This document shows positions 2,471 through 19,502 of a stretch of DNA of 20,000 nt, in pieces. Each line of letters opens with the position of its first letter. Position 1 is the first letter of the stretch. Both the position numbers and the translations under genes were made by a program. The notes under the pieces are model-generated. The model had not been told where the DNA came from and ran no database searches. It saw nothing but the letters and a program-made list of their open reading frames with translations. Origin of the DNA: an uncultured virus (IMG/VR IMGVR_UViG_3300042860_002775) (lineage: Duplodnaviria > Heunggongvirae > Uroviricota > Caudoviricetes). The DNA lies in the IMG/VR virus record IMGVR_UViG_3300042860_002775, one strand, 5' to 3'.

Positions 2471-5392
2471 TCAAGAATATAGGTAATTAAAATACTGTTT
2501 ATAATTCAAATGACGCTCAGTTAAGAACTGAGTTAAGAACTTGTCTGCTTCTGGAAAACTCTTAAAAATACGATTTATTACGTCTATTCTAAATTGATCG
2601 CTGCCCATTTTACTATAATTATATATTTTCTGTACAATACGAATAGCGGCGCTGTCTTCGAAATTTAGTAATTTTTGAAGTATATTATCAACCTCCCTTA
2701 TACCCAAAATTTCTAAACGTGTATTCATTGCGTCAACAAATTTTTCTATATATTTGCCGCCACTGACATTTATTATCTCCGTACCAACATCCGTAAAATT
2801 AATCGAGTTGTTTTTTATATGCTCAAGAATATAATTCATCATTTCTTCTTTATCATCTGGATCCATATATTCCGTAGAGTATACAAGTAAGTTAAACGTA
2901 CCATAATCTGTAAAAATACTTGGATCTTTTGTACTAATTTTCTTTAAATTAAGCAATCTTTCTTTGCTGCTGTCTGCCAAACGTATCACGAGACTTATTG
3001 TGGCGTAATCAAATTTTTTTCCATTCTCTATAACATAATTCAACAACCCGCGAGGATCTTTCGTGAGACCTATATCCATACCCTCAACCGTGCTTGGAGA
3101 TATTCCCCCAATCATTTCAATAACTTGATTTACATCTTTTGCATGTTTTACAATCGCTTTTTTATCCAAATCAGTTAATTTTTTTACTTTTAATATTTTT
3201 GGAATTAGTCGAATAGGATCTACACCGTAGCGCAAGAGATTTTCAATCATATCGTGGCTCAACGAGTTATTTTTTACATCTATTATATAGTTCGTGACCG
3301 CTTTTATATTTTTTTCATCGTGAATACCTGAAAAAATATAAGCAAATTGAGAATCGGTCAACTTAGATCCAATCAATTTTAAAAGCTTGATAGCCAAAGA
3401 TTCTCTTTCTTTGATTGGGTATTTCGCAATAGCGAGTTCCACATTTCTATCATCCATTGAGTCCGAGTTACCGGTTTCAACAATCTGGTCAATCATTTTT
3501 TTCGCATCAACACAACCCAACAGCAACGGCGTTACAACCTCTGCATCCAATGAATTCTTTTTTAGATTAAAAATTGTGTTCGCTAATTTATCTGATTTTT
3601 TTGATCTAAAAAGTTCTTCGACATCATTTCCTGTCAACTTGTCGCCTTTCATATTCGCTATTCGTATGGCTATATCCTCGTTCCATCTATTTTGATAAAA
3701 TATAGTTCTGATTAATGCATAATCCAGCTTGATGCCGGGAATTGAAAGTATCTTTTCTATTGTTTTTTTATTATCGACGGCAAACTCTAGTATATATTCT
3801 GCTTCGCCCGCGCTGAGTGAAGATCCTTTTATTGAAAGAATATCGTTTTCAATCTTTTCCTTGTTTGTTGACCAATAGAACAAGACGGGTATGTCGGAAT
3901 AATCAATTCTATTTCTTTTTGTTTTGAGAATAAGATCGACCATCTTTTGTTTGTCTTTTGTTAGTTGCAACAAAGCCCCCAAGTCATCTGATGTTGTATT
4001 TCTAGTTCTTAGAAATCCCTCCGCAGCCTTGAAATCGTTCGCAACTATTCCCAGATTTATTTTATAACTTCTTCCTCTATCTTTTCTCTTTGATTTTTCA
4101 GCCTTCCATTCGTCTTCGCTCGGAAGGTCGGATGGATCTGGATTATCCAAATAACTTATTATCTCAAATTTAGAACTGTCTGTGAAAAATGCCTGACATC
4201 GTTCGTTTGAATGAATAACACCGTATCCTCCATCAAAGACCAACCCGTACCCAAGATCTTTTCTTAAAATTTTATTCCAGTTTACTGTTGATTTTCCACC
4301 AAGTTCATCACTTACCAGCTTGCAGAAATACCAAAACACGCCGACTCCAAGTTTTGCAAAGTCTGTGCCTGCTTTCGCCCTTCTTAGCAATTCCTCAATA
4401 TCTTCGACTTTATCCTTATATATTTCTATAATTTTCTTGATGTCCTTTTCGCCATCAGATGCTGTATACTTTGATACATCAATCTTTTTTATATTATTTT
4501 TTTCTTTCAATATAAAAATATATGGTCTTCCTGCCGCAAATGGAAAGTTTATAATTCCATTTTTTTTACCATAAAACTCGGCGGCTTTTTTCAACGGAAA
4601 ACAATATACACCCAGCGGAGTATCATAACTACTGTTTGGATTTATACCTGCCTTTATAAAATGAGTAAATGTGATGTATATGTCATCGCGGTCCATATAC
4701 TTATCAAGCATTTCGGTGTAAGGGATTTTTGGATTTTTTTCTCCACCACGCCGTTTTTCAGAAAGCAATCCAGAATCAAAAAACAGTTGATCTAATTTAT
4801 TTTTTACAAACTCTGGAACTTTGTCGCTTGCTGTTATTTTTTCCTTCAATCCATCAAAGTACATTTCATTTCCGACCAAAACTTTGTTTGCCTCGCCTAC
4901 ATCCGAATATTCAAACCCAATTGTTCCATCAGAATTTATTCCATTGATTTTTGCGCCTCCAAACACACTGGAAGGAATAATAGTTTTGATCAATTTCAAG
5001 AATATCTTGGCGCTTATATCGTTCTTTAGCCTCAATACCTTGAATCCCATTTTCTCTGACTGGTTGGCTATTTCCTTACTTACCATTCCCCATAATGGCA
5101 TATTAGAATACTTGTTCTTTACTTCTTGTATTCCCTTGTAAATTGATTTTGGGCTACCCGCTACACCAACCAATTTGACCATTCCACTATTCTGAACTCT
5201 TACCGCAACATATCCATTTTCATCTCCGTAAAATGTCCAGTTTCTTGCTCGCTCAACAAACTTATCTTTATCCCAACTCTTGCCTGTTGACTTTATATAA
5301 CTTTGATTGAAAATATCATACGCATTGTCCACATTTAGTGTGTCAAATGTGAATTCTGCCTCACCTAAAAATTTATCAATGGGATCCACCAT
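2471..5392 (-). CDS. Large multidomain phage protein (N-terminal domain, GINPxSxYxTPxG domain, C-terminal ~30-aa helical repeats)
   Basis: 973-aa ORF; domains separated by FLGE / LLSE-type motifs; repeated LLxxxxDxxKxIxxILxxKxxxL pattern in the C-terminal half. Confidence 0.85.
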   Translation of the reverse strand: MVDPIDKFLGEAEFTFDTLNVDNAYDIFNQSYIKSTGKSWDKDKFVERARNWTFYGDENGYVAVRVQNSGMVKLVGVAGSPKSIYKGIQEVKNKYSNMPLWGMVSKEIANQSEKMGFKVLRLKNDISAKIFLKLIKTIIPSSVFGGAKINGINSDGTIGFEYSDVGEANKVLVGNEMYFDGLKEKITASDKVPEFVKNKLDQLFFDSGLLSEKRRGGEKNPKIPYTEMLDKYMDRDDIYITFTHFIKAGINPNSSYDTPLGVYCFPLKKAAEFYGKKNGIINFPFAAGRPYIFILKEKNNIKKIDVSKYTASDGEKDIKKIIEIYKDKVEDIEELLRRAKAGTDFAKLGVGVFWYFCKLVSDELGGKSTVNWNKILRKDLGYGLVFDGGYGVIHSNERCQAFFTDSSKFEIISYLDNPDPSDLPSEDEWKAEKSKRKDRGRSYKINLGIVANDFKAAEGFLRTRNTTSDDLGALLQLTKDKQKMVDLILKTKRNRIDYSDIPVLFYWSTNKEKIENDILSIKGSSLSAGEAEYILEFAVDNKKTIEKILSIPGIKLDYALIRTIFYQNRWNEDIAIRIANMKGDKLTGNDVEELFRSKKSDKLANTIFNLKKNSLDAEVVTPLLLGCVDAKKMIDQIVETGNSDSMDDRNVELAIAKYPIKERESLAIKLLKLIGSKLTDSQFAYIFSGIHDEKNIKAVTNYIIDVKNNSLSHDMIENLLRYGVDPIRLIPKILKVKKLTDLDKKAIVKHAKDVNQVIEMIGGISPSTVEGMDIGLTKDPRGLLNYVIENGKKFDYATISLVIRLADSSKERLLNLKKISTKDPSIFTDYGTFNLLVYSTEYMDPDDKEEMMNYILEHIKNNSINFTDVGTEIINVSGGKYIEKFVDAMNTRLEILGIREVDNILQKLLNFEDSAAIRIVQKIYNYSKMGSDQFRIDVINRIFKSFPEADKFLTQFLTERHLNYKQYFNYLYS

Positions 5393-5431: not shown

Positions 5432-5893
5432 TTAGGATGTGCATTTCATCAATATGTCATAATAATAAGTATAATCTTTGTTGGTATAAACCATTTTAGC
5501 TTTATGCTTAAAAACAGTTTTCACCGTTGCCATATCTTTGCCAATATCCTTCTCCTTGAAGTACCATTTGAACAAAAACTGATTGACCTGTATGTCTTGG
5601 GCAATATTACACCACTCTCTGTCCATCTTTGGATTTATAAGCCAATGACCAAACATTACGTGACATAGTTCGTGGCAAATAACAAACAACTTTTTATCGT
5701 GCTTGTATTTTTTCCAAACTTCTGGATTAGCGACGATTCTAAAGTTATTGTTATAGATTTCTAACTCAACAGATTCGGCGTCGTCGTCAAATACCATTGG
5801 TTCAAACCTATTCCACATTTCACCAAATACGGGATTGAGAATATCAAGCCTCATACTCAGCAGTTGATTTTCTCGTTTCTTCAGTTTTTTCAT
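5432..5893 (-). CDS. Putative metallopeptidase (HExxH)
   Basis: FVICHELCHVMFGH and NIAQDIQVNQ motifs, resembling DUF2201-type peptidase domains. Start reassigned to ATG 5893 (MKKLKKREN) because the longer ORF overlaps a terminator and another gene. Confidence 0.75.
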   Translation of the reverse strand: MKKLKKRENQLLSMRLDILNPVFGEMWNRFEPMVFDDDAESVELEIYNNNFRIVANPEVWKKYKHDKKLFVICHELCHVMFGHWLINPKMDREWCNIAQDIQVNQFLFKWYFKEKDIGKDMATVKTVFKHKAKMVYTNKDYTYYYDILMKCTS

Positions 5894-5920
5894 AAAAAAT
5901 AGGGGAGGTTTCCCTCCCCT
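5894..5920 (-). terminator. Rho-independent terminator
   Basis: Minus strand AGGGGAGG-GAAA-CCTCCCCT followed by ATTTTTT, just after the stop at 5925. Confidence 0.8.
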
Positions 5921-5924
5921 TGGT

Positions 5925-6146
5925 TCAGATGCGGGCTCGTCGAGCCTTCTTTTTGCTCTTGGGCTTTTCAGTCGTGCCAGCGACATACTTTTCACCAGCA
6001 GCCTTGCGACGAGCCGCACTTGCCCACGAGTTGCGAGTCTTCTTGCTCGCAAACTCATACTTCTTTCCTTCGTTGAGCAACTTCTCAACTTCGTCGGTAG
6101 AAGTTGCGCTCAAAATACGCTGTTTTAGACCTTGGTTGTTCTTCAT
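5925..6146 (-). CDS. Small basic hypothetical protein
   Basis: 73 aa, K/R-rich C-terminus, followed by a terminator. Confidence 0.75.
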   Translation of the reverse strand: MKNNQGLKQRILSATSTDEVEKLLNEGKKYEFASKKTRNSWASAARRKAAGEKYVAGTTEKPKSKKKARRARI

Positions 6147-6758: not shown

Positions 6759-8435
6759 TTAGTTGGAAGTATTAGCTTCATTCACATTCATTATGTGATT
6801 GAACTCTGCTACACTCATACCAAGTTTGTTTGCGATGTCTATAGTCTTGGTATTCTTTGCTCCAAGCTTTTCTAATGCCGCTTTCTTTTCTTTTGGCGTC
6901 ATCATATGAAGCTCACGCTGTATTCTTTTGATTTCTTCTGGATCAATCGGAGCTTCATCAGTAAGTTTATCCAGAAAATCGGTTTGGCCAACATCTGTTT
7001 TCATTCCCGCAGTTATTGAACTTGCTGGCGTAAGTGGACCACCATTGCGAACATCTCTGTCAAGCCAATCAACTTTATATTCTTCAATGTTTCCAAGTAT
7101 GGTTGGAAAATCCTTATACAATCTTTCAACGTAGTTCCATTTTTCAATCACTTCAGCCTTGTTGTTCCAGAATGATATTATTTTTTTTCTATACCATAAT
7201 CTGCCAGCTAATCCACCGGATTTTACTCTAAATGCGCCAGGATCATCATCGTCATGAACTTTACCAGATTTGATAAAATCTGCCAATGGACCAGAACTTA
7301 CAGAATCAAACATAGCTTCAAAATCTGATATTTCAATTTCTCGATTAGAAACCATATCATAAAAATCACGCATATCTTCTTCAGTGGCTTTAATATACTC
7401 CATATTTTCGTGAGCGTATTGAAGAATTTCCATTATATCAGTATGTACTCCACCCTCATTGATTGCTGAAAATTTTGGATAAATAAAAAATGCTATAGCG
7501 TCGCCATCCATATATTTCGCAATCTTGAACTCTCCATCAACACTAAGCACCGTATCTGGGCTTTCTTTCAACAAATCTTTCAGCTTGATATGTCCTTCAA
7601 GTGCTGGCATTGCTGCGGTTGCTTTTGCTGGGTAGTCAAATCCTTTTGCTGCTTTTTTATCCTGCCTGTTCCAAAAACTTGGACTATAATCTGCCTTATC
7701 TTTCTTGAAATGTTTTTGTGCTTTCAATGCCTGTATTTCTTCTGGGCTCAATTTTTCTTTGTCGTCGGGAATATTACCGGTCAATTCTTTGTATGTATAA
7801 ATTCCGCGACTATCAATAAATTCATACAATGCAGTTTCAAGATTCATGTTATAGTTTTTCATGAAACTATATACTTGATTCATATATGGCATCACCCTGT
7901 CTTTTTCATTCCAAAAACTTACTACATTTGCATCTACCCAAATTCTACCAGCAAGTTCATTTGATTCATCGTCGTTGCCACCGCCCCGAATATCAAGCTT
8001 TTTAAAATATTCTCTATGCTTTTCTAGATACTTGCGAACATCTTCAAGACTGCTCGCATTTAGGCCGTGAAAATAACACTCATATGCTTTGTCTCTTTTT
8101 GCTATAAGTCCAGGATCGCCATCCATACGTCTAAATTCATAATTACGTTCAAACACATCTTGTTTCCCACGCGAACTATGCCCAGCATATCTAAGAATCA
8201 AATCCAGGCTTCCGTGCGTTCCGCGATGCAGATATATTATTATCTTGTCTTTTGGTTCTATAAAGAATGGATATGCGTCAGGATCATCCCACCGAATAGA
8301 TACCGTTTCTTTGCGTTTTATTCCAAGTTTTTCAAGTTTTTGAACATCCGAAGGGCTGACAAAAAATCTGTCTGGACTTTCAGTCATTATACTTTCCAGC
8401 AAAAACTCTATATCAAATGGAATACGCTTTTTCAT
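6759..8435 (-). CDS. Large phage protein with two tandem homologous domains
   Basis: Duplicated motifs ESPD...LAGRIWVDANVVSFWN and ESPD...LAGRLWYRKKIISFWN. Start reassigned to ATG 8435 (MKKRIPF). Confidence 0.85.
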   Translation of the reverse strand: MKKRIPFDIEFLLESIMTESPDRFFVSPSDVQKLEKLGIKRKETVSIRWDDPDAYPFFIEPKDKIIIYLHRGTHGSLDLILRYAGHSSRGKQDVFERNYEFRRMDGDPGLIAKRDKAYECYFHGLNASSLEDVRKYLEKHREYFKKLDIRGGGNDDESNELAGRIWVDANVVSFWNEKDRVMPYMNQVYSFMKNYNMNLETALYEFIDSRGIYTYKELTGNIPDDKEKLSPEEIQALKAQKHFKKDKADYSPSFWNRQDKKAAKGFDYPAKATAAMPALEGHIKLKDLLKESPDTVLSVDGEFKIAKYMDGDAIAFFIYPKFSAINEGGVHTDIMEILQYAHENMEYIKATEEDMRDFYDMVSNREIEISDFEAMFDSVSSGPLADFIKSGKVHDDDDPGAFRVKSGGLAGRLWYRKKIISFWNNKAEVIEKWNYVERLYKDFPTILGNIEEYKVDWLDRDVRNGGPLTPASSITAGMKTDVGQTDFLDKLTDEAPIDPEEIKRIQRELHMMTPKEKKAALEKLGAKNTKTIDIANKLGMSVAEFNHIMNVNEANTSN

Positions 8436-8436
8436 C

Positions 8437-8613
8437 TTATAATAATTTACTCTTTGGTTTAAAAGGATTATTTTCTGCACGAAATGCGTGCTTTTGATCT
8501 ATGCCTTGTTTCACGATATTAGCCGCTGCTGCATTATAATTTGGAGACTTTGTTATATCAGGTTGCATATCTCTAATAACCTTGCCTAATTCATTTTGAT
8601 TTACGTTGTTCAT
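8437..8613 (-). CDS. Small hypothetical protein (58 aa, not in ORF track)
   Basis: MNNVNQNELGKVIRDMQPDITKSPNYNAAAANIVKQGIDQKHAFRAENNPFKPKSKLL; fills the gap exactly, TATTTATA upstream. Confidence 0.65.
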   Translation of the reverse strand: MNNVNQNELGKVIRDMQPDITKSPNYNAAAANIVKQGIDQKHAFRAENNPFKPKSKLL

Positions 8614-10046: not shown

Positions 10047-10592
10047 TCACTTGTGTATGTTTGGATCCTTTGGATCAAAATTCCCATTATTTCCAATAGC
10101 AGACTTTATTTGAGTAGGTTCAAATACCACATATACACCATGCCCAAAATCAACGCCGTCATATCCTTGAGATTTCAAATCATTAAACACCTCGCGCTGT
10201 GCTTTTGTATAATTATCAGCATGCTTTAGCTTATTTGCCTGCTCGGTATTCAATTTGGCTGGATTCTGAATAGACAAATATACAGGAATAACCCTAGACG
10301 CTGTATTCGCCTTCTTATAAGTCATTCCCCCACTTGACCAATCAGGCTCAGTCTTCATGCTATCATTCTGATCCGCATATGATGAAGCACTATCTGATGA
10401 AGTTGTAAACCATATACCATTTTGCTTTATTTTAAACTTTGTAAAATCAAGATCCTTGCTTGTGCCATGATATACACGCAAAGGTTTTCCACTGCTATCA
10501 ACAACCGCACTGTTTTTAAACCAATTCTTGAACTGTGGAGTATCCTGTTGAGTCTTTATTTCATTCAATAGACTTCTAAGTAGTATATGCAT
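10047..10592 (-). CDS. ADP-ribosyltransferase-like protein (ART-PolyVal type)
   Basis: FKNWFKNSAVVDSSGKPLRVYHGT, GIWFT, ASSYA, VIPVYLSIQNP, GYDGV, VVFEPTQIKSAIGNNGNFD match the ART domain of phage polyvalent proteins; start MHILLRSLLNE. Confidence 0.8.
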   Translation of the reverse strand: MHILLRSLLNEIKTQQDTPQFKNWFKNSAVVDSSGKPLRVYHGTSKDLDFTKFKIKQNGIWFTTSSDSASSYADQNDSMKTEPDWSSGGMTYKKANTASRVIPVYLSIQNPAKLNTEQANKLKHADNYTKAQREVFNDLKSQGYDGVDFGHGVYVVFEPTQIKSAIGNNGNFDPKDPNIHK

Positions 10593-10599
10593 ATACAAT

Positions 10600-10986: not shown

Positions 10987-11226
10987 CCCCACCCGCTTGA
11001 CGAAGTACTCGTCCACCTGCGTGTCACCCAAGAAGGTGTCAGTCACGGGGTTGTAGAAGCAGACCCCCGCGAAGTTGGCGTTGGTGGTGTCGCTGGGGAA
11101 GCGGACGTTGGCGATCTGCCTGTCGTTGTGGAAGACGGCATAGCTCGCGTACCGGACGGCCTTGGCCTGAGCCGCAGCGGTGGCGCGATAGATGGCGAAG
11201 CGGTCAGCGGTAGTGGTGTTGTTCAT
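10984..11226 (-). CDS. Hypothetical early-array protein (MNNTTTADRF...)
   Basis: Start reassigned to ATG 11226 from the promoter spacing. Confidence 0.75.
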   Translation of the reverse strand: MNNTTTADRFAIYRATAAAQAKAVRYASYAVFHNDRQIANVRFPSDTTNANFAGVCFYNPVTDTFLGDTQVDEYFVKRVG

Positions 11227-11235
11227 CGTGCGCAT

Positions 11236-11264
11236 ACTATGGCGAATTATTTTATAAAAAGCAA
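11236..11264 (-). promoter_or_regulatory. Array promoter
   Basis: TTGCTT-N17-CATAGT-N9-ATG. Confidence 0.8.
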
Positions 11265-11265
11265 G

Positions 11266-11292
11266 AAAAAAAGGGAGGCTTATGCCTCCCTT
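11266..11292 (-). terminator. Rho-independent terminator
   Basis: Minus strand GGGAGGC-ATAA-GCCTCCC followed by TTTTTTT, after the stop at 11297. Confidence 0.85.
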
Positions 11293-11296
11293 GTTG

Positions 11297-11596
11297 TTAG
11301 TCAAGCACTTGCGCGTAAGCGTTCTTGTCCAGCTTCAGGACAAGGTATCGCACTCGGTCATACGTCTGGATGCTCACGGGCTTGTGGCGGAAGGTCATCT
11401 TGCCGAATAGCGCATAGCCCCGATACGCGACCTGAGCGAAGCGGATCAGCGCAGCGACCAGCGGAGTGGTCTCCACTTCCACGCCATTCAGCGGGTTGCT
11501 TGCGACGGTCCACTTGTCACTCACGATCAGGCTGTAGTCGGTGGTCAGCTTGTTGATCAGGTTCTGTTCGGGCTTGGTTAGGGTGGTGTTATTCAT
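11297..11596 (-). CDS. Hypothetical early-array protein
   Basis: 99 aa, own promoter, terminator downstream. Confidence 0.8.
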   Translation of the reverse strand: MNNTTLTKPEQNLINKLTTDYSLIVSDKWTVASNPLNGVEVETTPLVAALIRFAQVAYRGYALFGKMTFRHKPVSIQTYDRVRYLVLKLDKNAYAQVLD

Positions 11597-11605
11597 ACGG
11601 GCGAT

Positions 11606-11634
11606 AGATTGGTGGATTTTTTATAGAAAGTCAA
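11606..11634 (-). promoter_or_regulatory. Array promoter
   Basis: TTGACT-N17-CAATCT-N9-ATG. Confidence 0.8.
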
Positions 11635-11637
11635 GCT

Positions 11638-11937
11638 TTACTTGACAGGAATTTCCAACGTCTCAACCACCGTCTTGGTGGTTTCCTCGTACCACTTGGC
11701 CTCGATATGGTCAGCAGGGATAACTTCGGCCCAACCGTGACCAAGGATGATTTGATGATCCGTGGGGTAGTAATGATTCCTACGGTGGCGAATCGTTTCC
11801 AATACTCGACCCTTTTTGTAAGTGACGGGGGGCAAGTCGGGCGTTCGATAGTAAGTGAAATCCTTGTTTAGAACAAACTTGGTGACGAGCATCACCTTTT
11901 CGGTCTTGATGGCGTTGGCGGTGGTGGTGTTTTTCAT
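11638..11937 (-). CDS. Hypothetical early-array protein
   Basis: 99 aa, own promoter. Confidence 0.8.
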   Translation of the reverse strand: MKNTTTANAIKTEKVMLVTKFVLNKDFTYYRTPDLPPVTYKKGRVLETIRHRRNHYYPTDHQIILGHGWAEVIPADHIEAKWYEETTKTVVETLEIPVK

Positions 11938-11946
11938 AACGGCGCT

Positions 11947-11975
11947 ATGTTGGGTTATGATTTATAAAAAGTCAA
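11947..11975 (-). promoter_or_regulatory. Array promoter
   Basis: TTGACT-N17-CAACAT-N9-ATG; -35 supplies the upstream TGA stop. Confidence 0.8.
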
Positions 11976-12235
11976 GCATTTACACGGCTCGCCCAGCGTT
12001 CAGCATAAATTTCGTGCGTCTTCTTTTCGACTTCTTCCATGACTACATCGGGAGTTTTGCCATACAATGCACCAAGCAAATGATATGCATTATACAAATC
12101 AATGTCTACGGTCTCGCTACCACCCATCCACAGATTATAACGCACCTTGGCCAAAAGCTCAATGCCTCTATCATAGCTAGGCGCAATATTGGTGGGCTTG
12201 GTAGTCTTCTTGCTAGTCTTCTTGGTCTTTTTCAT
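11972..12235 (-). CDS. Hypothetical early-array protein
   Basis: 87 aa, K/T-rich N-terminus, own promoter. Confidence 0.8.
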   Translation of the reverse strand: MKKTKKTSKKTTKPTNIAPSYDRGIELLAKVRYNLWMGGSETVDIDLYNAYHLLGALYGKTPDVVMEEVEKKTHEIYAERWASRVNA

Positions 12236-12245
12236 CTTGATTATT

Positions 12246-12273
12246 AGTATGCTGAATTTTTATAGAAAGTCAA
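12246..12273 (-). promoter_or_regulatory. Array promoter
   Basis: TTGACT-N16-CATACT-N10-ATG; supplies the upstream TGA stop. Confidence 0.8.
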
Positions 12274-12416
12274 GCACTTATGCGGCGCAATACAAAAAAT
12301 CCTGTAGCTATGGTGATGATAGTCAAAGCTATGGTGGTGAAGGAATAAAAGCTGATGGCGAAAATGGACAACACGCTAAACAGAATTGCACCAGCAAACA
12401 GCAGTAGATTTTTCAT
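12270..12416 (-). CDS. Small hydrophobic membrane protein (48 aa, not in ORF track)
   Basis: MKNLLLFAGAILFSVLSIFAISFYSFTTIALTIITIATGFFVLRRISA; fills the cassette slot exactly. Confidence 0.7.
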   Translation of the reverse strand: MKNLLLFAGAILFSVLSIFAISFYSFTTIALTIITIATGFFVLRRISA

Positions 12417-12422
12417 AATGGT

Positions 12423-12457
12423 AGTATTTTGAGATAAAAAAAGGGATTGTCAATCCC
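12423..12457 (-). promoter_or_regulatory. Promoter (TTGACA) embedded in a terminator-like hairpin
   Basis: Minus strand GGGATTGACAATCCC-TTTTTTT; TTGACA begins 37 nt before ATG 12416. Confidence 0.65.
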
Positions 12458-12584
12458 AGTTCTTGGCGTATTTTTCCTTACGAGTGTAAGCGCCCTTGCC
12501 CTTCTTCGGCTTGTGGCTCACGCCGCCGAGGTTGACGCCAGAGGTGAACACAGAACGAATCTTCAGATTAGTGGTGGTCTTCAT
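12450..12584 (-). CDS. ArfA-like (alternative ribosome rescue factor A-like) peptide, 44 aa, not in ORF track
   Basis: MKTTTNLKIRSVFTSGVNLGGVSHKPKKGKGAYTRKEKYAKNWD; KKGKGAYTRK resembles the ArfA core KKGKGSYxRK. Confidence 0.65.
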   Translation of the reverse strand: MKTTTNLKIRSVFTSGVNLGGVSHKPKKGKGAYTRKEKYAKNWD

Positions 12585-12594
12585 TATGCCAATA

Positions 12595-12622
12595 ACTATG
12601 GCAGATTTTTATAGAAAGTCAA
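12595..12622 (-). promoter_or_regulatory. Array promoter
   Basis: TTGACT-N16-CATAGT-N10-ATG. Confidence 0.8.
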
Positions 12623-12626
12623 GCAC

Positions 12627-12662
12627 AAAGAAATGGGGGAGGAGCCACCACGCTCCTCCCCC
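12627..12662 (-). terminator. Rho-independent terminator
   Basis: Minus strand GGGGGAGGAGC-GTGGTG-GCTCCTCCCCC followed by ATTTCTTT. Confidence 0.75.
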
Positions 12663-12687
12663 GATGAACACCCTCTAACCCAAAATT

Positions 12688-13044
12688 TTAGTGGTGATTG
12701 AAGCAGTTAATCGCCTCGCCACCCCACTTGTAAAAAGTGGCATAGCTGTTTTCCTTCACCTTGTAGCTGTTGCCATACGGCTTGAACCGCTTGGTCTCGG
12801 TCTCGTCGTTTTCGGCGCTGAAGTTGGGCACGCTAGTCCACTCCATGCCGCCCGACCCCTTGTAGGTGTTGATGCTGCCAAGGCGCAGGAGCTTGACGCT
12901 GCTCTTCGTCACCGCCACGACCTTGGCGAAGTGGGCGATGCACGCCTCATACCCAGAGCAACTGACGAGGATGTCGCCGACCTTGGGACCGTTGACGACG
13001 GCGGCGGGAGTTTCGAGTGTGGGGGAGATGATAGTGTTGTTCAT
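12688..13044 (-). CDS. Hypothetical early-array protein
   Basis: 118 aa; KVGDILV...AKVVAVTKSSVKL suggests a small beta-barrel. Confidence 0.8.
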   Translation of the reverse strand: MNNTIISPTLETPAAVVNGPKVGDILVSCSGYEACIAHFAKVVAVTKSSVKLLRLGSINTYKGSGGMEWTSVPNFSAENDETETKRFKPYGNSYKVKENSYATFYKWGGEAINCFNHH

Positions 13045-13054
13045 AACGTAGAAC

Positions 13055-13082
13055 AGCTTGGCAGGTTTTTATGAAAAGTCAA
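13055..13082 (-). promoter_or_regulatory. Array promoter
   Basis: TTGACT-N16-CAAGCT-N10-ATG. Confidence 0.75.
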
Positions 13083-13086
13083 GAAC

Positions 13087-13380
13087 TTAACCAAGGGCGG
13101 GATGATTTTCGGTCACCACGTAGATATGAAAGTGAGCAGTGCCACGGGGAGCACGATAGGTGTTCAGGTTCACGATGTTCACGTTTCGCAAGTCCTTGCG
13201 AGCCGAAACCCAGTTGAACACCCGCTCAAGCGAGGAGCCAGCAGGAACCGCCCACGCGCAGCGAGACGTGCCGCCAGCAGCGCCGCCCCAGCCGCTCATG
13301 AACTTGTCCTTGGCGACAACGCCCCAGACGTGAGTATTCTTCTGCTCGGTCGAACGATCATCAACAGTAGTAGTGTTCAT
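13087..13380 (-). CDS. Hypothetical early-array protein
   Basis: 97 aa, DKFMSGWGGA motif, own promoter. Confidence 0.8.
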   Translation of the reverse strand: MNTTTVDDRSTEQKNTHVWGVVAKDKFMSGWGGAAGGTSRCAWAVPAGSSLERVFNWVSARKDLRNVNIVNLNTYRAPRGTAHFHIYVVTENHPALG

Positions 13381-13390
13381 TGTGCTGAAT

Positions 13391-13418
13391 AGTATGGTGG
13401 GTTTTTATGAAAAGTCAA
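13391..13418 (-). promoter_or_regulatory. Array promoter
   Basis: TTGACT-N16-CATACT-N10-ATG. Confidence 0.8.
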
Positions 13419-13422
13419 GAAC

Positions 13423-13632
13423 TTACTTCTGCTTGAGCCAGGCAATGGTCTTGTCCACGGCGACAAGAAGCGCACCGCCGATGATGCCGACAATGAAAAT
13501 CACAGGGCCAACGGCCAGAGCCAGCTTGAACAGATTGGTCTTGGAGTAGGTCAATTCATCAACCGAGTGGAACAGCACAAAGAAACCAAAGATGGTCCAA
13601 ACAACGAGGGTGGCGATAAGGATGGTGCTCAT
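13423..13632 (-). CDS. Small membrane protein (two hydrophobic segments)
   Basis: 69 aa, two TM-like stretches, GP motif before the second. Confidence 0.75.
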   Translation of the reverse strand: MSTILIATLVVWTIFGFFVLFHSVDELTYSKTNLFKLALAVGPVIFIVGIIGGALLVAVDKTIAWLKQK

Positions 13633-13642
13633 ATTGGATATT

Positions 13643-13670
13643 ACTATGGCAGATTTTTATAAAAAGTCCA
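13643..13670 (-). promoter_or_regulatory. Array promoter (variant -35)
   Basis: TGGACT-N16-CATAGT-N10-ATG. Confidence 0.7.
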
Positions 13671-13688
13671 GAAGAAAATATAAATATC

Positions 13689-13895
13689 TTACTTGATAAA
13701 TCCTGCTGCCTTCAGGCGCAACTGGGTGTCCGTCTTGGCCTTATCGCGCATAAACCCAGCAACGTCGTGCTCCTCCCAAAGACCGCCGCCGCGCAGCCAG
13801 CGAGCGGTAGGGTCGCCGTGCTTCTGTTCGGGATGGCACCGCTTGAAACCATAATCTTCAGCCAGAGCAATCAAATGCGAGTTTGTTAGCGTCAT
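13689..13895 (-). CDS. Hypothetical early-array protein
   Basis: 68 aa, own promoter. Confidence 0.75.
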   Translation of the reverse strand: MTLTNSHLIALAEDYGFKRCHPEQKHGDPTARWLRGGGLWEEHDVAGFMRDKAKTDTQLRLKAAGFIK

Positions 13896-13901
13896 AACAG
13901 T

Positions 13902-13929
13902 AGACTGCCTAAATTTTATAGAAAGTCAA
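13902..13929 (-). promoter_or_regulatory. Array promoter
   Basis: TTGACT-N16-CAGTCT-N6-ATG. Confidence 0.75.
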
Positions 13930-13930
13930 G

Positions 13931-14119
13931 TTACTTCTTGCTGAAACTAAGCCGCACCAGCAGAAAAAGCGGGCTGGCGATGGGACCGTAGTACAAAACC
14001 GCCTCGCCCACACCCACGTCCAGGTATTCCTCGCGGGTGTAGGTGGCAAACGCCAGAATCACGGCGCAGACGCCAAGCAGGGACCAAGCAGCGACCAGAC
14101 CAAGGATATTATCGATCAT
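13931..14119 (-). CDS. Small membrane protein
   Basis: 62 aa, two hydrophobic stretches, GP motif. Confidence 0.7.
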   Translation of the reverse strand: MIDNILGLVAAWSLLGVCAVILAFATYTREEYLDVGVGEAVLYYGPIASPLFLLVRLSFSKK

Positions 14120-14127
14120 ATGCTAGT

Positions 14128-14155
14128 ACTGTAGCACTTTTTATAGAAAAGTCAA
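14128..14155 (-). promoter_or_regulatory. Array promoter
   Basis: TTGACT-N16-TACAGT-N8-ATG; supplies the upstream TGA stop. Confidence 0.8.
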
Positions 14156-14358
14156 GAACTATCTTCGCTATCCATAATTGCTATTCTAAGTTTGGCATAT
14201 TCACCCAGCCATAATGCCAGCATTTCTTGACTATTTTCTTTGACGGTGCCTGCCATTACAAGCAGCATACTTTGAGTATTTTTATCACCCAGTTCGCCAA
14301 ATCTATTTGCCAAATCTATCAGGCATTGCACCAGTTGATTTTTTGTATCTTCGTTCAT
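14152..14358 (-). CDS. Hypothetical protein
   Basis: 68 aa; ATGA overlap with the upstream gene. Confidence 0.7.
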   Translation of the reverse strand: MNEDTKNQLVQCLIDLANRFGELGDKNTQSMLLVMAGTVKENSQEMLALWLGEYAKLRIAIMDSEDSS

Positions 14359-14522
14359 ACTTCACGAATCGTGGAGATTTCAGAATAATGAACGGGGTAT
14401 TCATCTACTCCAATAATAACATATTCGCCAGCCACATTAGCATAGCCAGTAAAATATCTACCATCATTTGTGTGTAGATGAATATTCTTTTTGTTTAGCG
14501 AAAATAGGTCGTTATTTTTCAT
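14355..14522 (-). CDS. Small hypothetical protein (55 aa, not in ORF track)
   Basis: MKNNDLFSLNKKNIHLHTNDGRYFTGYANVAGEYVIIGVDEYPVHYSEISTIREV; ATGA coupling to the next gene. Confidence 0.65.
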   Translation of the reverse strand: MKNNDLFSLNKKNIHLHTNDGRYFTGYANVAGEYVIIGVDEYPVHYSEISTIREV

Positions 14523-14527
14523 ACGTT

Positions 14528-15283
14528 CTAATCTATCTGTAGTTCTTTTTTTGTCAAGGCTATACGTTCATTGGTTATGTTATAATACTTATCGCTTATT
14601 TCACTACCAATGTATTTTCTATTACTTTTTAGGCAAGATACTGCTACGGTGCCTGTGCCAGTAAATGGGTCATATACTATATCATCTACATTACTGAAGT
14701 TATGTATTATTTTATTAGATAGTTCTAACGGAAAAGAAGCGCCGTGTTCTTTACTATACTTTTCGCCTCTGCTTATTTGCCAGATATCTTCTAACTTGCC
14801 TCTGCCAAAATTACATTTCTTGAACTGGCGAGAAATAGCATTACTTTTCTCAAATACTAAAATAAGTTCGGTGCGTCTATTCAATACACCACTTTGCATG
14901 GCAGGCTGACCGTGGTTTTTATCCCATACAATAATATCTTTTAGATGATTAGAAAACTCGCCAATCATCTTGAAAAAAGCAACCTTGCTGCCAGTTACAA
15001 TCTGAATGTTGTAAAAAACAATCTTGCTGGTTCTTATTAGTTCAGAAAGTATCTTGCTGTGCAGTCTATGAAAATCATCAATCGGTAGATTATCGTCAAA
15101 GCCAACATACTTTGTACTAAACTCTTCTTTGACTATTTGGCGGCTACAATACTTGCCATTACGAATTCTTAGATTCATATTGTATGGCGGCGAAGTAAAT
15201 ACCAAATCAACAAAACTGTCTGGCATACGAGCCATCGTAGCCAGACAGTCCTCATTGTAAATCTTGTTCAGTTCAAGACTCAT
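14528..15283 (-). CDS. Site-specific DNA methyltransferase, N4-C/N6-A, beta class
   Basis: Motif IV FTSPPYN precedes motif I YDPFTGTGT; HGASFP; start MSLELNKIYNEDC. Confidence 0.92.
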   Translation of the reverse strand: MSLELNKIYNEDCLATMARMPDSFVDLVFTSPPYNMNLRIRNGKYCSRQIVKEEFSTKYVGFDDNLPIDDFHRLHSKILSELIRTSKIVFYNIQIVTGSKVAFFKMIGEFSNHLKDIIVWDKNHGQPAMQSGVLNRRTELILVFEKSNAISRQFKKCNFGRGKLEDIWQISRGEKYSKEHGASFPLELSNKIIHNFSNVDDIVYDPFTGTGTVAVSCLKSNRKYIGSEISDKYYNITNERIALTKKELQID

Positions 15284-15821
15284 CTTCCTCTTCCAGATGC
15301 TCAAACGGATCGTAATCAAACTCGTCGATTACAAACTGGCGATACAACACCTTTTCATCTTCATCTTCACAGTCATAACTAACCTCGTCATAATCCTCGC
15401 CAGATATGGTAAGACTACCAGCAAAACCAACTCCACACTCATAATACTTGTGAGTAAAACTCAGTTCTGGAAACAACGTGGATAGATACTTGGTTGCTTC
15501 AAGCGACGGACCCCACGCACTATCAAAACTGTAATAGATGTTGTCTACGTTAGAGTCGTCCTCGCTCGCTTCGATGTCCCACTTCGTACCCCAATACTTG
15601 ACGTGCCAGTCGTACCAGTTGTCGGAACCATACTTCTCCATCAGTTCCTTGCTCTTGTCGGCTTGGGCGGCGGGGACAGGAGAAGTGGTCTCTTCCAGTT
15701 CCTGCGGCATAGGACGAATCTTCTGAAGCGTCAATGGCTCGTTATTGAGCCACTCGCGGAACTTGGTGATAGCAGAAGCAGCACCATCAATAGACAATGT
15801 ATTGAAACACCAGTTGGGCAT
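15273..15821 (-). CDS. DUF1281/YubB-like ferredoxin-fold phage protein
   Basis: MPNWCFN start, NWYDWHVKYWGTKWD, SFDSAWGP, FPELSF..YYECGVGFAG motifs. Confidence 0.8.
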   Translation of the reverse strand: MPNWCFNTLSIDGAASAITKFREWLNNEPLTLQKIRPMPQELEETTSPVPAAQADKSKELMEKYGSDNWYDWHVKYWGTKWDIEASEDDSNVDNIYYSFDSAWGPSLEATKYLSTLFPELSFTHKYYECGVGFAGSLTISGEDYDEVSYDCEDEDEKVLYRQFVIDEFDYDPFEHLEEEDES

Positions 15822-15829
15822 AGGAGAAT

Positions 15830-15858
15830 AGATTGACTGAGTTTTTATCTAATGTCAA
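15830..15858 (-). promoter_or_regulatory. Array promoter
   Basis: TTGACA-N17-CAATCT-N8-ATG; supplies the upstream TGA stop. Confidence 0.75.
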
Positions 15859-16058
15859 GAACGATGTGGAGAAACTCGCTTGAGGCAAGTGCCATAGCCA
15901 GGTCGCCTCGTTGCCTTGTCGTGAGCCGCAGCCTGATCCTCGGTCATGAGCATCAGGCTCGGCGCGGTCTTGTGGTCAAAGACCAGACGGCCCACCAGCT
16001 TGGGCCGTGGGCCGTTCAGTATGTCTGCCAGAGTGGCAGCAGGAACGATGTCAGTCAT
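15855..16058 (-). CDS. Hypothetical protein
   Basis: Start MTDIVPAAT overlaps the upstream stop; 67 aa. Confidence 0.6.
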   Translation of the reverse strand: MTDIVPAATLADILNGPRPKLVGRLVFDHKTAPSLMLMTEDQAAAHDKATRRPGYGTCLKRVSPHRS

Positions 16059-16350
16059 CGTAGCCGTAGTGGCCATAGTCCTCGTCCGTGCCAAACCCAG
16101 CAGAGGCAAGGGCATCGGCGTCCGCCTCGGCGTCGGTCAGGAATCCGTCAGACGGCTCGGCGTCAGCACGATGGCAGATGAAGTTGGAGATGCCGCCGTT
16201 GTGGAGGACATCCACCAGACCGTCGATGTCGTCGGAATAGATCGTCAGGTTGTCGAAGTCGAGTTCGTAGGACGGGGTAGCGTCCAGTTCCAGAGTCGTA
16301 GCGGCCAGCAGGAACAGACCCTTGTCGCTGAAGGTAATGGAGGAGTTCAT
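16051..16350 (-). CDS. Highly acidic small protein
   Basis: 99 aa, D/E-rich, C-terminal ALASAGFGTDEDYG. Confidence 0.8.
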   Translation of the reverse strand: MNSSITFSDKGLFLLAATTLELDATPSYELDFDNLTIYSDDIDGLVDVLHNGGISNFICHRADAEPSDGFLTDAEADADALASAGFGTDEDYGHYGYDD

Positions 16351-16357
16351 ATTGAGT

Positions 16358-16385
16358 AGAATGGTGATTTTTTATGAAAAGTCAA
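16358..16385 (-). promoter_or_regulatory. Array promoter
   Basis: TTGACT-N16-CATTCT-N7-ATG. Confidence 0.8.
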
Positions 16386-16393
16386 GCACAACC

Positions 16394-16561
16394 TCAAAAA
16401 TTCGCATAGCCAGCTTCCACCCAAGAGTGGACCGCCCGCTGCCACGAACCTTGCAGGTTCTTCCAAATGCCAGAGTCAACAAAGGACTGAACATTGTCCG
16501 CAAACTCCTCGTTGCTCAACGTGCCGTTTTCAACGCCGATGATGAAGTCGATGTGATCCAT
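16394..16561 (-). CDS. Small hypothetical protein (55 aa, not in ORF track)
   Basis: MDHIDFIIGVENGTLSNEEFADNVQSFVDSGIWKNLQGSWQRAVHSWVEAGYANF; own promoter. Confidence 0.75.
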   Translation of the reverse strand: MDHIDFIIGVENGTLSNEEFADNVQSFVDSGIWKNLQGSWQRAVHSWVEAGYANF

Positions 16562-16570
16562 AGTTAGAGT

Positions 16571-16598
16571 AGAATGACTAGTTTTTATAAAAAGTCAA
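16571..16598 (-). promoter_or_regulatory. Array promoter
   Basis: TTGACT-N16-CATTCT-N9-ATG. Confidence 0.8.
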
Positions 16599-16621
16599 GC
16601 ACCAAGTTTCAGAATCGGCAA

Positions 16622-16894
16622 TCAGCAGTTCTCGCACATGGCCTGCTCCTCTTCGTCCAATTGGTCAAAGAGATCGCCCGCAGCATCACGGAACTTGCCC
16701 AAGGGAGCAGTAGCGAAGATGCCCCAGAACATAGCACCAATTTCAGAGTAGTCGCCTTCCTTACGCAGCCGCTTGAAGTCGGCGGTGAGCTTCTGGATTT
16801 CCAGTTGCTCGGCAGCAGCCTTAGCGGCCTTGGCGGTGGGCTTGGTAGCCTTGGCGACGGTCTTGGTCTTCTTACGAATAGAAGTGGTTTTCAT
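16622..16894 (-). CDS. Hypothetical protein with K/A/T-rich N-terminus
   Basis: Start reassigned to MKTTSIRKK (16894) from the promoter spacing. Confidence 0.75.
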   Translation of the reverse strand: MKTTSIRKKTKTVAKATKPTAKAAKAAAEQLEIQKLTADFKRLRKEGDYSEIGAMFWGIFATAPLGKFRDAAGDLFDQLDEEEQAMCENC

Positions 16895-16902
16895 GATGGT
16901 AA

Positions 16903-16930
16903 AATTTAGCAGGGTTTTATAGAAAGTCAA
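16903..16930 (-). promoter_or_regulatory. Array promoter
   Basis: TTGACT-N16-TAAATT-N8-ATG; supplies the upstream TGA stop. Confidence 0.8.
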
Positions 16931-17160
16931 GAACAAATCTTCGCCACTTCGTTGCTGCGAACAAAGTAGCACTTGAACGTGTCGCTGTTCCAGCCAGTGA
17001 ACACGAACGCCTTGCCGTCGTAGCGCAGCACCTTCTTGGTCAGCTTCGCCACGTCATCCCAGCCGTTCGGAACGTCAATGGTCAGATACTCGCGGTTCAC
17101 GTCGGCGCGGTTGGAATAGACGACGCTGATTTCGTCCTTGGAGATAGTGGCAGTGTTCAT
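16927..17160 (-). CDS. Hypothetical early-array protein
   Basis: Start MNTATISK (17160); FVFTGWNSD motif. Confidence 0.8.
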   Translation of the reverse strand: MNTATISKDEISVVYSNRADVNREYLTIDVPNGWDDVAKLTKKVLRYDGKAFVFTGWNSDTFKCYFVRSNEVAKICS

Positions 17161-17167
17161 ACCTAGC

Positions 17168-17195
17168 ACTATGGCAGGGTTTTATAGAAAGTCAA
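17168..17195 (-). promoter_or_regulatory. Array promoter
   Basis: TTGACT-N16-CATAGT-N7-ATG. Confidence 0.8.
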
Positions 17196-18716: not shown

Positions 18717-18745
18717 ATGTTGGTTGAAGAAATAAAGAAAGTCAA
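18717..18745 (-). promoter_or_regulatory. Array promoter (TTTATTTCTTCAAC subtype)
   Basis: TTGACT-N17-CAACAT-N9-ATG; supplies the sigma gene TGA stop. Confidence 0.75.
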
Positions 18746-19317
18746 GAGTTGTTATGTTCTGCCAGCAACTTTTTCAGTTTGTTTCTGGCGCGAAATGAAC
18801 GCACTTTTACTGTAGAAAAATTCCAGCCAGTCAAGGCAGAAATTTGCGCCGTGGTCTTTTGCTCAAAATGAACCAACTTTATGACACGCTGGTCATCGGC
18901 ATTCAATTTGGAAATCAGATTGTGAACCAAATCACGATCAGCATATGTATTGTTACTCGATTCGTCGCGATTGTCAACTAGATTGTTTTGCAGTTGGTCA
19001 GCTTCAGTTTCTGACAAATCAGCAAAACGATACTCTGGACGACGCCGTTGAGCACGCAGGTGGTCAATGCAGGTTGATACGGCAATCCGGCTTACCCAAT
19101 GATGAAACGGAACCTGACCAGCGTATTGATCCAGCTTCAGAAATACTTTCTTGTAAACCTCCTGAGTAAGATCCTCCTCAGCAGAACGCCAAGGACGGCG
19201 CGACTTCACGATCTTGGTGACCATCGGCGTGAGATGTTCCACCAGTTGGCGCGCTGCCTCTTGGTCATTCTTCTTGACCTTTTTGAGGCAGGTTGAGACT
19301 TCTTGGGTCGTTTCCAT
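18742..19317 (-). CDS. RNA polymerase ECF (sigma-70 group 4) sigma factor
   Basis: Region 2 AEEDLTQEVYKKVFLKLDQY...FHHWVSRIAVSTCIDHLR; region 4 L.ADDQRVIKLVHFEQKTTAQISALTGWNFSTVKVRSFRARNKLKK; start METTQEV coupled to the upstream TGA. Confidence 0.92.
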   Translation of the reverse strand: METTQEVSTCLKKVKKNDQEAARQLVEHLTPMVTKIVKSRRPWRSAEEDLTQEVYKKVFLKLDQYAGQVPFHHWVSRIAVSTCIDHLRAQRRRPEYRFADLSETEADQLQNNLVDNRDESSNNTYADRDLVHNLISKLNADDQRVIKLVHFEQKTTAQISALTGWNFSTVKVRSFRARNKLKKLLAEHNNS

Positions 19318-19502
19318 CACGCCGCCTTGGCCTCCGCAGACCACTTGATCGCAATCGCCTGTGCCTCTTCGATCATCTTGTCGGTGTATTTGATACGGGA
19401 ATCCGTGTCCAGCGCGACGAAGTTCCGGTCAAGCGCGAGGTTGTAAATCTTCGCCTTGAGAATCCCGGTGAAGATCGTGTAGTCAATGTGGGCGTTGTTC
19501 AT
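19317..19502 (-). CDS. Hypothetical early-array protein
   Basis: Start reassigned to MNNAHIDY (19502). Confidence 0.75.
   Translation of the reverse strand: MNNAHIDYTIFTGILKAKIYNLALDRNFVALDTDSRIKYTDKMIEEAQAIAIKWSAEAKAA

Follow-up and report, generated by a model that had tools for sequence, protein, structure and literature searches.

A window of 20,000 nucleotides from an uncultured Caudoviricetes virus contains, on the minus strand, an open reading frame that runs from an ATG at 12584 to a TGA at 12452-12450 (12584 to 12450, stop codon included) and has the 44-residue translation MKTTTNLKIRSVFTSGVNLGGVSHKPKKGKGAYTRKEKYAKNWD. The original prediction took this peptide for an ArfA-like ribosome-rescue factor, constitutively short, driven by its own promoter and ending in a hairpin that doubles as the -35 box of the next gene. 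Such a reading raises the questions of whether the frame is a gene at all, how far its likeness to ArfA extends, and what a peptide of this kind might do on the ribosomes of an infected cell.

A conserved short gene in a lake-water phage genome

A 90%-clustered protein collection yielded 17 homologues of the peptide, 33-76 aa long and 68-97% identical, the longer ones being the result of miscalled starts at a TTG of the promoter motif described below. A scan of IMG/VR placed relatives on 35 viral-contig loci, coding 29 distinct peptides, and the nearest record (G001, 23.7 kb) carries an identical one. Within a 27-codon core compared among 11 sequences, differences numbered 304, 256 and 692 at codon positions 1, 2 and 3, respectively, and 481 differences were synonymous versus 321 non-synonymous. 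Given this excess at third positions and the preponderance of synonymous changes, this is a genuine gene that evolves under purifying selection. The contrary view, that a non-functional frame happens to lie between two promoter cassettes, could draw on its very short length and on the absence of RNA evidence for it, freshwater metatranscriptome contigs having fallen on neighbouring genes only (12609-12946 and 13161-13357, 90-99% alike); these are contigs only and have no bearing on expression of the ORF. Against it stand both sets of homologous peptides, the concentration of changes at third positions and the conserved cassette position, so that a chance ORF has next to no probability left and is effectively refuted by the conservation pattern.

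HMMER searches of 1.84 billion cluster representatives of any length returned 25 clusters at E<=0.001, all of 38-86 aa except for one 628-aa repetitive protein, matched at profile positions 13-32 in eight stretches, and these sizes indicate a sub-family without a fused form. The motif FTSGVNLG[GN] gave no confirmed locus in the representative genomes of 185,579 prokaryote species, and the sub-family has to date been seen on viral and metagenomic contigs only. An AF2 model of the 44-aa monomer reached a pLDDT of 63.6 with zero secondary structure; the peptide is thus predicted to be intrinsically disordered, and a lack of predicted structure is what would be expected of a peptide that folds on its target.

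All listed genes of the window, which has a G+C content of 41.5%, lie on the minus strand. They include those for PhoH (459-1265), a SprT/DUF2201-like metallopeptidase (5432-6088), a protein with an ART-PolyVal ADP-ribosyltransferase domain (10047-10598, E 8e-25), an N6/N4 DNA methylase (14528-15319) and an ECF-like sigma factor (18742-19344). In the phage collection the sigma factor finds its best matches, of 24-29% identity, in crAss-like phages and in other uncultured ones, and the best phage matches of PhoH are 32-35% identical, with mixed hosts. Two large minus-strand ORFs, 2471-5392 (973 aa) and 6759-8480 (573 aa), are without Pfam or PHROG match, and the 973-aa protein matches just a single sequence of the phage collection, 735 kb long and from an uncultured phage, which is present under two accessions (16% coverage, 44% identity). 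Comparison of 16 neighbouring ORFs with PHROGs gave two weak matches, both to families of unknown function, and no tRNA or Rfam family was found in the window. Related phages are large, their viral records measuring 72-297 kb, with the 297-kb one rated complete. Nucleotide and protein searches of phage sequences found no cultured relative of the window phage, and megablast of 11000-14000 against cultured phages gave zero matches. The DNA of the window recurs, with a word share of at least 0.96, in 18 lake-water metagenome runs, 14 of which may belong to the source campaign.

No Shine-Dalgarno sequence is visible before any of the 24 larger ORFs of the window; taken together with the G+C content, this hints at a host that does without Shine-Dalgarno pairing. 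An AT-rich motif, ATATTTAT, is present in six copies on the coding strand and none on the other, 17-28 nt before several starts (ORF starts at 1614, 5392, 8960 and 10598), and may be a middle or late promoter. Counts of a TA..TTTG motif on the two strands, 21 versus 13, are not decisive.

Promoter-like sites, hairpins and cassette layout

The region around the ORF is dominated by an 18-nt motif, TTGACTTTCTATAAAAAT, which occurs in 11 copies with at most 3 mismatches, all on the minus strand, when 0.06 would be expected from shuffles. Each copy (11596-17195, minus strand) precedes the ATG of an ORF of 44-118 aa by 16-20 nt, with no Shine-Dalgarno sequence in between. Were the motif to act as a promoter of the sigma-70 type, transcripts would begin at the ATG or within a few bases of it and the messages would be leaderless, and the array looks like a series of early-gene cassettes with leaderless or very short-leader transcripts. 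Homologues of the 118-aa and 97-aa neighbours accompany the ArfA-like gene in 12 out of 14 loci (L002-L015); the gene order is shuffled in relatives, as expected of independent promoter-gene units.

The cassette of the 44-aa ORF follows this plan. A strong terminator-like hairpin of 11 pairs, 9 of them GC (12635..12662, minus strand), marks the end of the 118-aa gene upstream and sets the cassette apart from it. It is followed on the same strand by a promoter-like site, TTGACT-16-CATAGT with an upstream TG (12595..12622), the first 18 nt of which (12605-12622) are a copy of TTGACTTTCTATAAAAAT. The ATG lies 10 nt past the second hexamer, so that the mRNA would be leaderless or near-leaderless; a Shine-Dalgarno sequence is absent. 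The gene is presumably expressed early. The observation of a 44-aa ORF with a promoter-like site of its own is thus borne out.

At the other end of the gene, the minus-strand hairpin GGGATTGACAATCCC, with a 6-bp stem and the 3-nt loop GAC (12443..12457), holds the TGA stop codon in its loop and stem; a terminator scan lists this site, and a run of seven T directly after it (12436..12442) resembles a terminator tail. The next promoter-like site, TTGACA-16-CAAAAT (12426..12453, minus strand, 10 of 12 matches), has a -35 hexamer that overlaps both the stop codon and the hairpin loop. It stands 37 nt before the ATG at 12416 of the following cassette, which encodes a 48-aa hydrophobic peptide (12416-12270, minus strand). 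The anatomy described by the original prediction, a TGA within a hairpin and T run that also provide the next -35 box, is thus correct, the elements lying between 12457 and 12426.

As a trait of the family, the hairpin around the stop did not hold up. A hairpin of the GGGATTGACAATCCC type recurs over the stop in only one of 11 relatives, the closest one (L003), and two others (L006 and L008) have different and unrelated predicted hairpins there. Among the window and the 11 loci, the stop is TAA in nine genes and TGA in three, and in nine of these 12 family genes the next promoter-like element overlaps the stop or begins at most 10 nt away. Because closeness of promoter and stop is frequent and this type of hairpin seldom recurs, the overlap of stop, hairpin and -35 box looks like tight packing of cassettes. 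A conserved regulatory hairpin in the style of arfA was considered and rejected on the same count of relatives. Moreover, since the T run comes after the stop codon, termination at this site would still leave the codon in the transcript.

A separate observation concerns a contig from a wastewater run (X19; labelled RNA, probably DNA), in which 11639 is connected to 12606, each of them at a copy of the promoter motif; the 966 bases left out contain the ArfA-like gene together with two of its neighbours. With only 21 letters on its shorter side, this joint may stem from a repeat or from another phage.

An ArfA-type tail behind a family-specific front

The peptide falls into two parts. Its tail, residues 20-42 (GGVSHKPKKGKGAYTRKEKYAKN), includes H24, KKGKG at 27-31, Y33, R35 K36 and K38 Y39. 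The sole Pfam match of the peptide is to ArfA (PF03889), at E 7.8e-5 and 22.5 bits, which does not reach the gathering cut-off of 25.5 bits, and places residues 24-39 on profile positions 28-43 of 44; NCBIfam gave zero matches. All 29 related viral peptides match ArfA at E<=0.0011, always at about profile positions 24-44, and four of them pass the gathering cut-off. In addition, 25 of the 30 Atlas feature matches are in ArfA-carrying clusters.

Whole alignments were compared as well. When an alignment of 34 peptides of the phage family was compared by hhalign with one of 22 bacterial ArfA sequences (mostly from Neisseriaceae, with Shewanella and Plesiomonas, and many of them named ArfA by NCBI), a match of 96.4% probability was obtained (E 1.4e-9, score 48.8, 23 columns), pairing phage G20-N42 with Neisseria ArfA positions 27-46. 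The highest score among 60 column shuffles of the ArfA alignment was 16.4, and the reversed alignment scored 16.9; since these controls fall far below 48.8, the match is not due to Lys/Gly composition. The family match foreseen for the peptide was thus obtained, below the Pfam cut-off and beyond what composition explains. A sequence profile search of the PDB at E<=10 returned six matches, all of them ArfA chains from ribosome complexes and none a BrfA chain, with residues 24-42 aligned to E. coli ArfA 30-48. In the alignments, phage HKPKKGKGAYTRKEKY corresponds to E. coli ArfA EKNKKGKGSYMRKGKH, and a named Neisseria ArfA, with HKPKKGKGAYSRKGK, differs from phage HKPKKGKGAYTRKEK at two positions. 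The K-H pair of ArfA is K-Y in the 44-aa peptide and K-H in some family members.

In bacterial ArfA the C-terminus lies in the mRNA entry channel, where the KGKGS and KH motifs bind (PMC8012679, PMC6299226). Only 46-48 residues are ordered in ArfA structures, a truncation to 40 aa is inactive (PMC8012679, PMC6299226), and mature ArfA has 52-55 aa (PMC6299226). Judged by the alignments, residues 20-42 of the phage peptide are homologous to this channel-binding tail, and the homology covers the C-terminal half only. The peptide includes this aligned segment in full and ends in NWD, aligned to the ...GNW of E. coli ArfA (residues 50-51), close to the end of the mature protein and at an in-frame stop; the idea of a constitutively short form agrees with this end point, and the phage peptide thus corresponds to a ready-truncated ArfA.

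The likeness does not extend to residues 1-19 (KIRSVFTSGVNL), for which hhalign gave zero alignment to the 22 bacterial ArfA sequences, so the ArfA-like character first proposed for the whole peptide stands for the tail and not for the front. This N-terminal module is specific to the family and strongly conserved in the 34-sequence alignment, reading K-[IL]-R-S-V-F-T-S-G-[VM]-N-L-G, with R10 and S11 invariant and F13, G16, L19 and G20 at least 90% conserved. Invariant residues of this kind imply a specific partner. In ArfA, activation of RF2 requires a helix (residues 15-24, including A18) and is abolished by A18T, while RF2 is recruited by F25, which sits in one of its pockets, and by the strand Q27-E30, which augments its sheet (PMC8012679). 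The helix motif D-N-A-L-K-A, invariant in the 22 bacterial ArfA sequences, is absent from the 44-aa peptide; upstream of residue 20 there is no counterpart of the activating helix, and AF2 predicts no helix there.

At the border of the two parts, hhalign pairs phage G20-H24 with Neisseria ArfA Q27-H31. By ungapped extension only, the near-invariant L19 coincides with ArfA F25 and V22-H24 with the last part of the strand that pairs with RF2, and we infer from this that these residues may be equivalent to F25 and the strand. With the activating helix lacking a counterpart, recruitment or activation of a release factor has no support from the sequence. The release-factor domain PF00472 (RF-1) was found in none of five related phage records, four of which are incomplete, so that any release factor involved would be that of the host; ArfA and BrfA are each species-specific for RF2 (PMC8012679).

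In other viral contigs this same tail follows different fronts. Two of these fronts read [WF]-N-T-G-x-R-x-H and R-V-N-P-E-G-F-M-G-S-A, and a third, R-N-P-V-A-R-H-x-H-N-R-G-G-V-H, comes with a weak match to DUF7230 as well. These weak DUF7230 matches, below the cut-off, were confined to two distant relatives (L032 and L035), and for the 44-aa peptide DUF7230 (PF23876) is unlisted even at E<=10. The tail HKPKKGKGSY stands behind a Cys-rich, Zn-ribbon-like segment (73 aa; L022, L024 and L031), and it is also part of a protein of 144 aa that matches DUF3008 weakly (L026 and L028); on the strength of these fusions it behaves as a portable module. In tblastn searches of cultured phages the peptide gave zero matches at E<=0.01 and only seven Enterococcus phage records at E 0.7, and the L032 peptide gave zero matches; the low-complexity filter of BLAST probably hides the tail in such searches.

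Some further carriers of the tail deserve mention in their own right. A protein of the cultured 142-kb Enterococcus phage EF1 (L049:1495-1641, MF001358), shared by six sister records, places an ArfA-type tail in a phage whose host is Gram-positive. Small proteins with a ...KWNTGVRVHKPKKGKGSY... tail are found in Verrucomicrobiota assemblies (L042, L044 and L046) and others with a ...RGTGIHKPKKGKGSYTRKNK... tail in Clostridium (L038, L039 and L043), which may be chromosomal ArfA analogues or prophage genes, and the assembly of a candidate-phylum bacterium also carries the tail.

Possible roles on the ribosome and relation to known systems

The reading that we prefer, with chances we judge to be about even, is that the ORF encodes a phage 'mini-ArfA', a rescue peptide working through release-factor-dependent release, and that it most likely docks on stalled host ribosomes, in the mRNA channel left vacant there. 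We infer ribosome binding, recruitment of a release factor and a benefit to the phage, which could be connected as follows. The gene for a small, disordered and basic peptide would be transcribed early, from a host-type promoter of its own, into an mRNA that has little or no leader and a normal stop codon. Its segment H24-K-P-K-K-G-K-G-A-Y-T-R-K-E-K-Y would be the same module that, in ArfA, goes into the mRNA entry channel of the 30S subunit when this is vacant. With it, the peptide would bind host ribosomes that have stalled at the 3' end of a broken mRNA, or of one lacking a stop codon, and have nothing in the channel. L19 and V22-H24 would then take the positions of ArfA F25 and of the RF2-pairing strand Q27-E30, and the motif K-I-R-S-V-F-T-S-G-V-N-L would substitute for the activating helix. 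A host class-I release factor would be recruited, release of the nascent chain being the most likely outcome, and the freed ribosomes could turn to phage translation while phage or defence nucleases cut host mRNAs. A bolder version, which we regard as tentative, postulates a phage-specific class of rescue factor that combines the channel sensor of ArfA with a new front, R-S-x-F-T-S-G-x-N-L-G, for RF1 or RF2 of an ArfA-less host that does not use Shine-Dalgarno sequences; produced constitutively from the outset of infection, it would take ribosomes off host mRNAs broken during takeover or by defence nucleases, in favour of leaderless phage messages.

The same tail could instead serve to block ribosomes. 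A peptide that fills the empty channel without recruiting a release factor would compete with tmRNA-SmpB, ArfA or ArfB, and would inhibit rescue and tagging or hold ribosomes in the stalled state. The restriction of homology to the channel-binding half and the absence of the activating helix are consistent with such a blocker, and there are precedents for its parts, in that ArfA(A18T) binds and recruits RF2 without activating it and a peptide of the SmpB tail inhibits tmRNA-SmpB binding (PMC8012679). However, a pure plug would not need residues 1-19 to be conserved as strongly as the tail, and no clear advantage of blocking for a lytic phage has been shown, for which reasons we consider blocking rather unlikely. 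Improbable in our estimate is also a basic nucleic-acid-binding peptide with another target altogether, be it free 30S or 50S subunits, rRNA precursors, phage RNA or DNA, or a role associated with the virion, in which the KKGKGSY module would be a reusable RNA-binding arm. The occurrence of the tail in fusions with the Zn-ribbon and the 144-aa protein in viral contigs would suit this explanation, as would the association of ArfA with isolated large subunits (PMC8012679), but the best and only family and structure matches are to ArfA, at the exact segment that enters the mRNA channel, and both size and end point of the peptide agree with mature ArfA.

Should rescue or blocking be true, large lake phages would control a step of host quality control that is essential in many bacteria. 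The tail family would then amount to a natural experiment, in which one channel-sensing tail is combined with the fronts RSVFTSGVNLG, WNTGxRxH, RVNPEGFMGSA and RNPVA... as well as with the fusions, and from this spread of fronts one could learn by what means small peptides recruit release factors and to what extent the ArfA principle applies outside the proteobacteria. At 44 residues, the peptide lends itself to direct synthesis and testing. The surprise is moderate, given that genes with an ArfA domain have already been annotated in phages (PMC8953757, PMC12753301). A full-text literature search turned up neither a functional study of any ArfA-like protein from a phage nor an account of the RSVFTSGVNLG family; the word 'phage' has zero occurrences in Burroughs and Aravind 2019 (PMC6514570), and an 'arfA' in PMC10680825 proved to be an unrelated name, absent from the current version.

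The closest known system is ArfA itself (YhdL, PF03889), the RF2-dependent factor of beta- and gammaproteobacteria, which is likewise small and shares with the phage peptide the homologous tail H/E-K-x-K-K-G-K-G-S/A-Y-x-R-K-x-K-H/Y and the same end point. In contrast, the N-terminal half of the phage peptide is unrelated and without a DNALKAL-type helix, its gene is phage-borne and its Pfam score stays below the cut-off. The phage gene also has its own in-frame TGA before the T run, unlike the stop-less mRNA of arfA, and with a stop codon of its own its expression should not be gated by trans-translation. The phage peptide thus fails three features of ArfA, namely the Pfam cut-off, the activating helix and the stop-less mRNA. 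ArfT of Francisella (40 aa) and BrfA of Bacillus are independent rescue peptides that also depend on release factors (PMC6299226, PMC8012679), and they share the design of a tiny basic peptide with its tail in the mRNA channel and a front that recruits RF1 and/or RF2 (PMC6299226, PMC8012679); in ArfT, a different front can recruit RF1 too (PMC6299226).

Among phage proteins, PHROG 37108, a family of unknown function, matches the peptide at E 2e-5 and 25.7 bits (residues 22-44 on profile positions 26-48 of 48), in the tail only, the N-terminal part being different. The 48-aa hypothetical protein of Enterococcus phage EF1 ends in ...KPKKGKGSYKRKPKHKGKWD, with the same tail and W-D end, whereas its N-terminal part differs and the overall likeness is weak (39% identity, E 0.7). 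Two cultured phages carry genes assigned to ArfA, g10 of Citromicrobium phage vB_CbaS-RXM, annotated as ArfA (PMC8953757), and gp30 of Pelagibacter phage HTVC027P, which is described as having an ArfA domain and reported to be highly expressed both early and late in infection (PMC12753301); the available text of these two papers reports no functional test of either (PMC8953757, PMC12753301). Like the 44-aa peptide, both are small phage proteins with a K-G-[KR]-G-S-[YF] tail, and both are without the RSVFTSGVNLG module: the front of g10 (60 aa), ...NPAFRQRKVRPLKGRGSY, is of the canonical ArfA type and unlike that of the 44-aa peptide, and gp30 (58 aa) has a different one.
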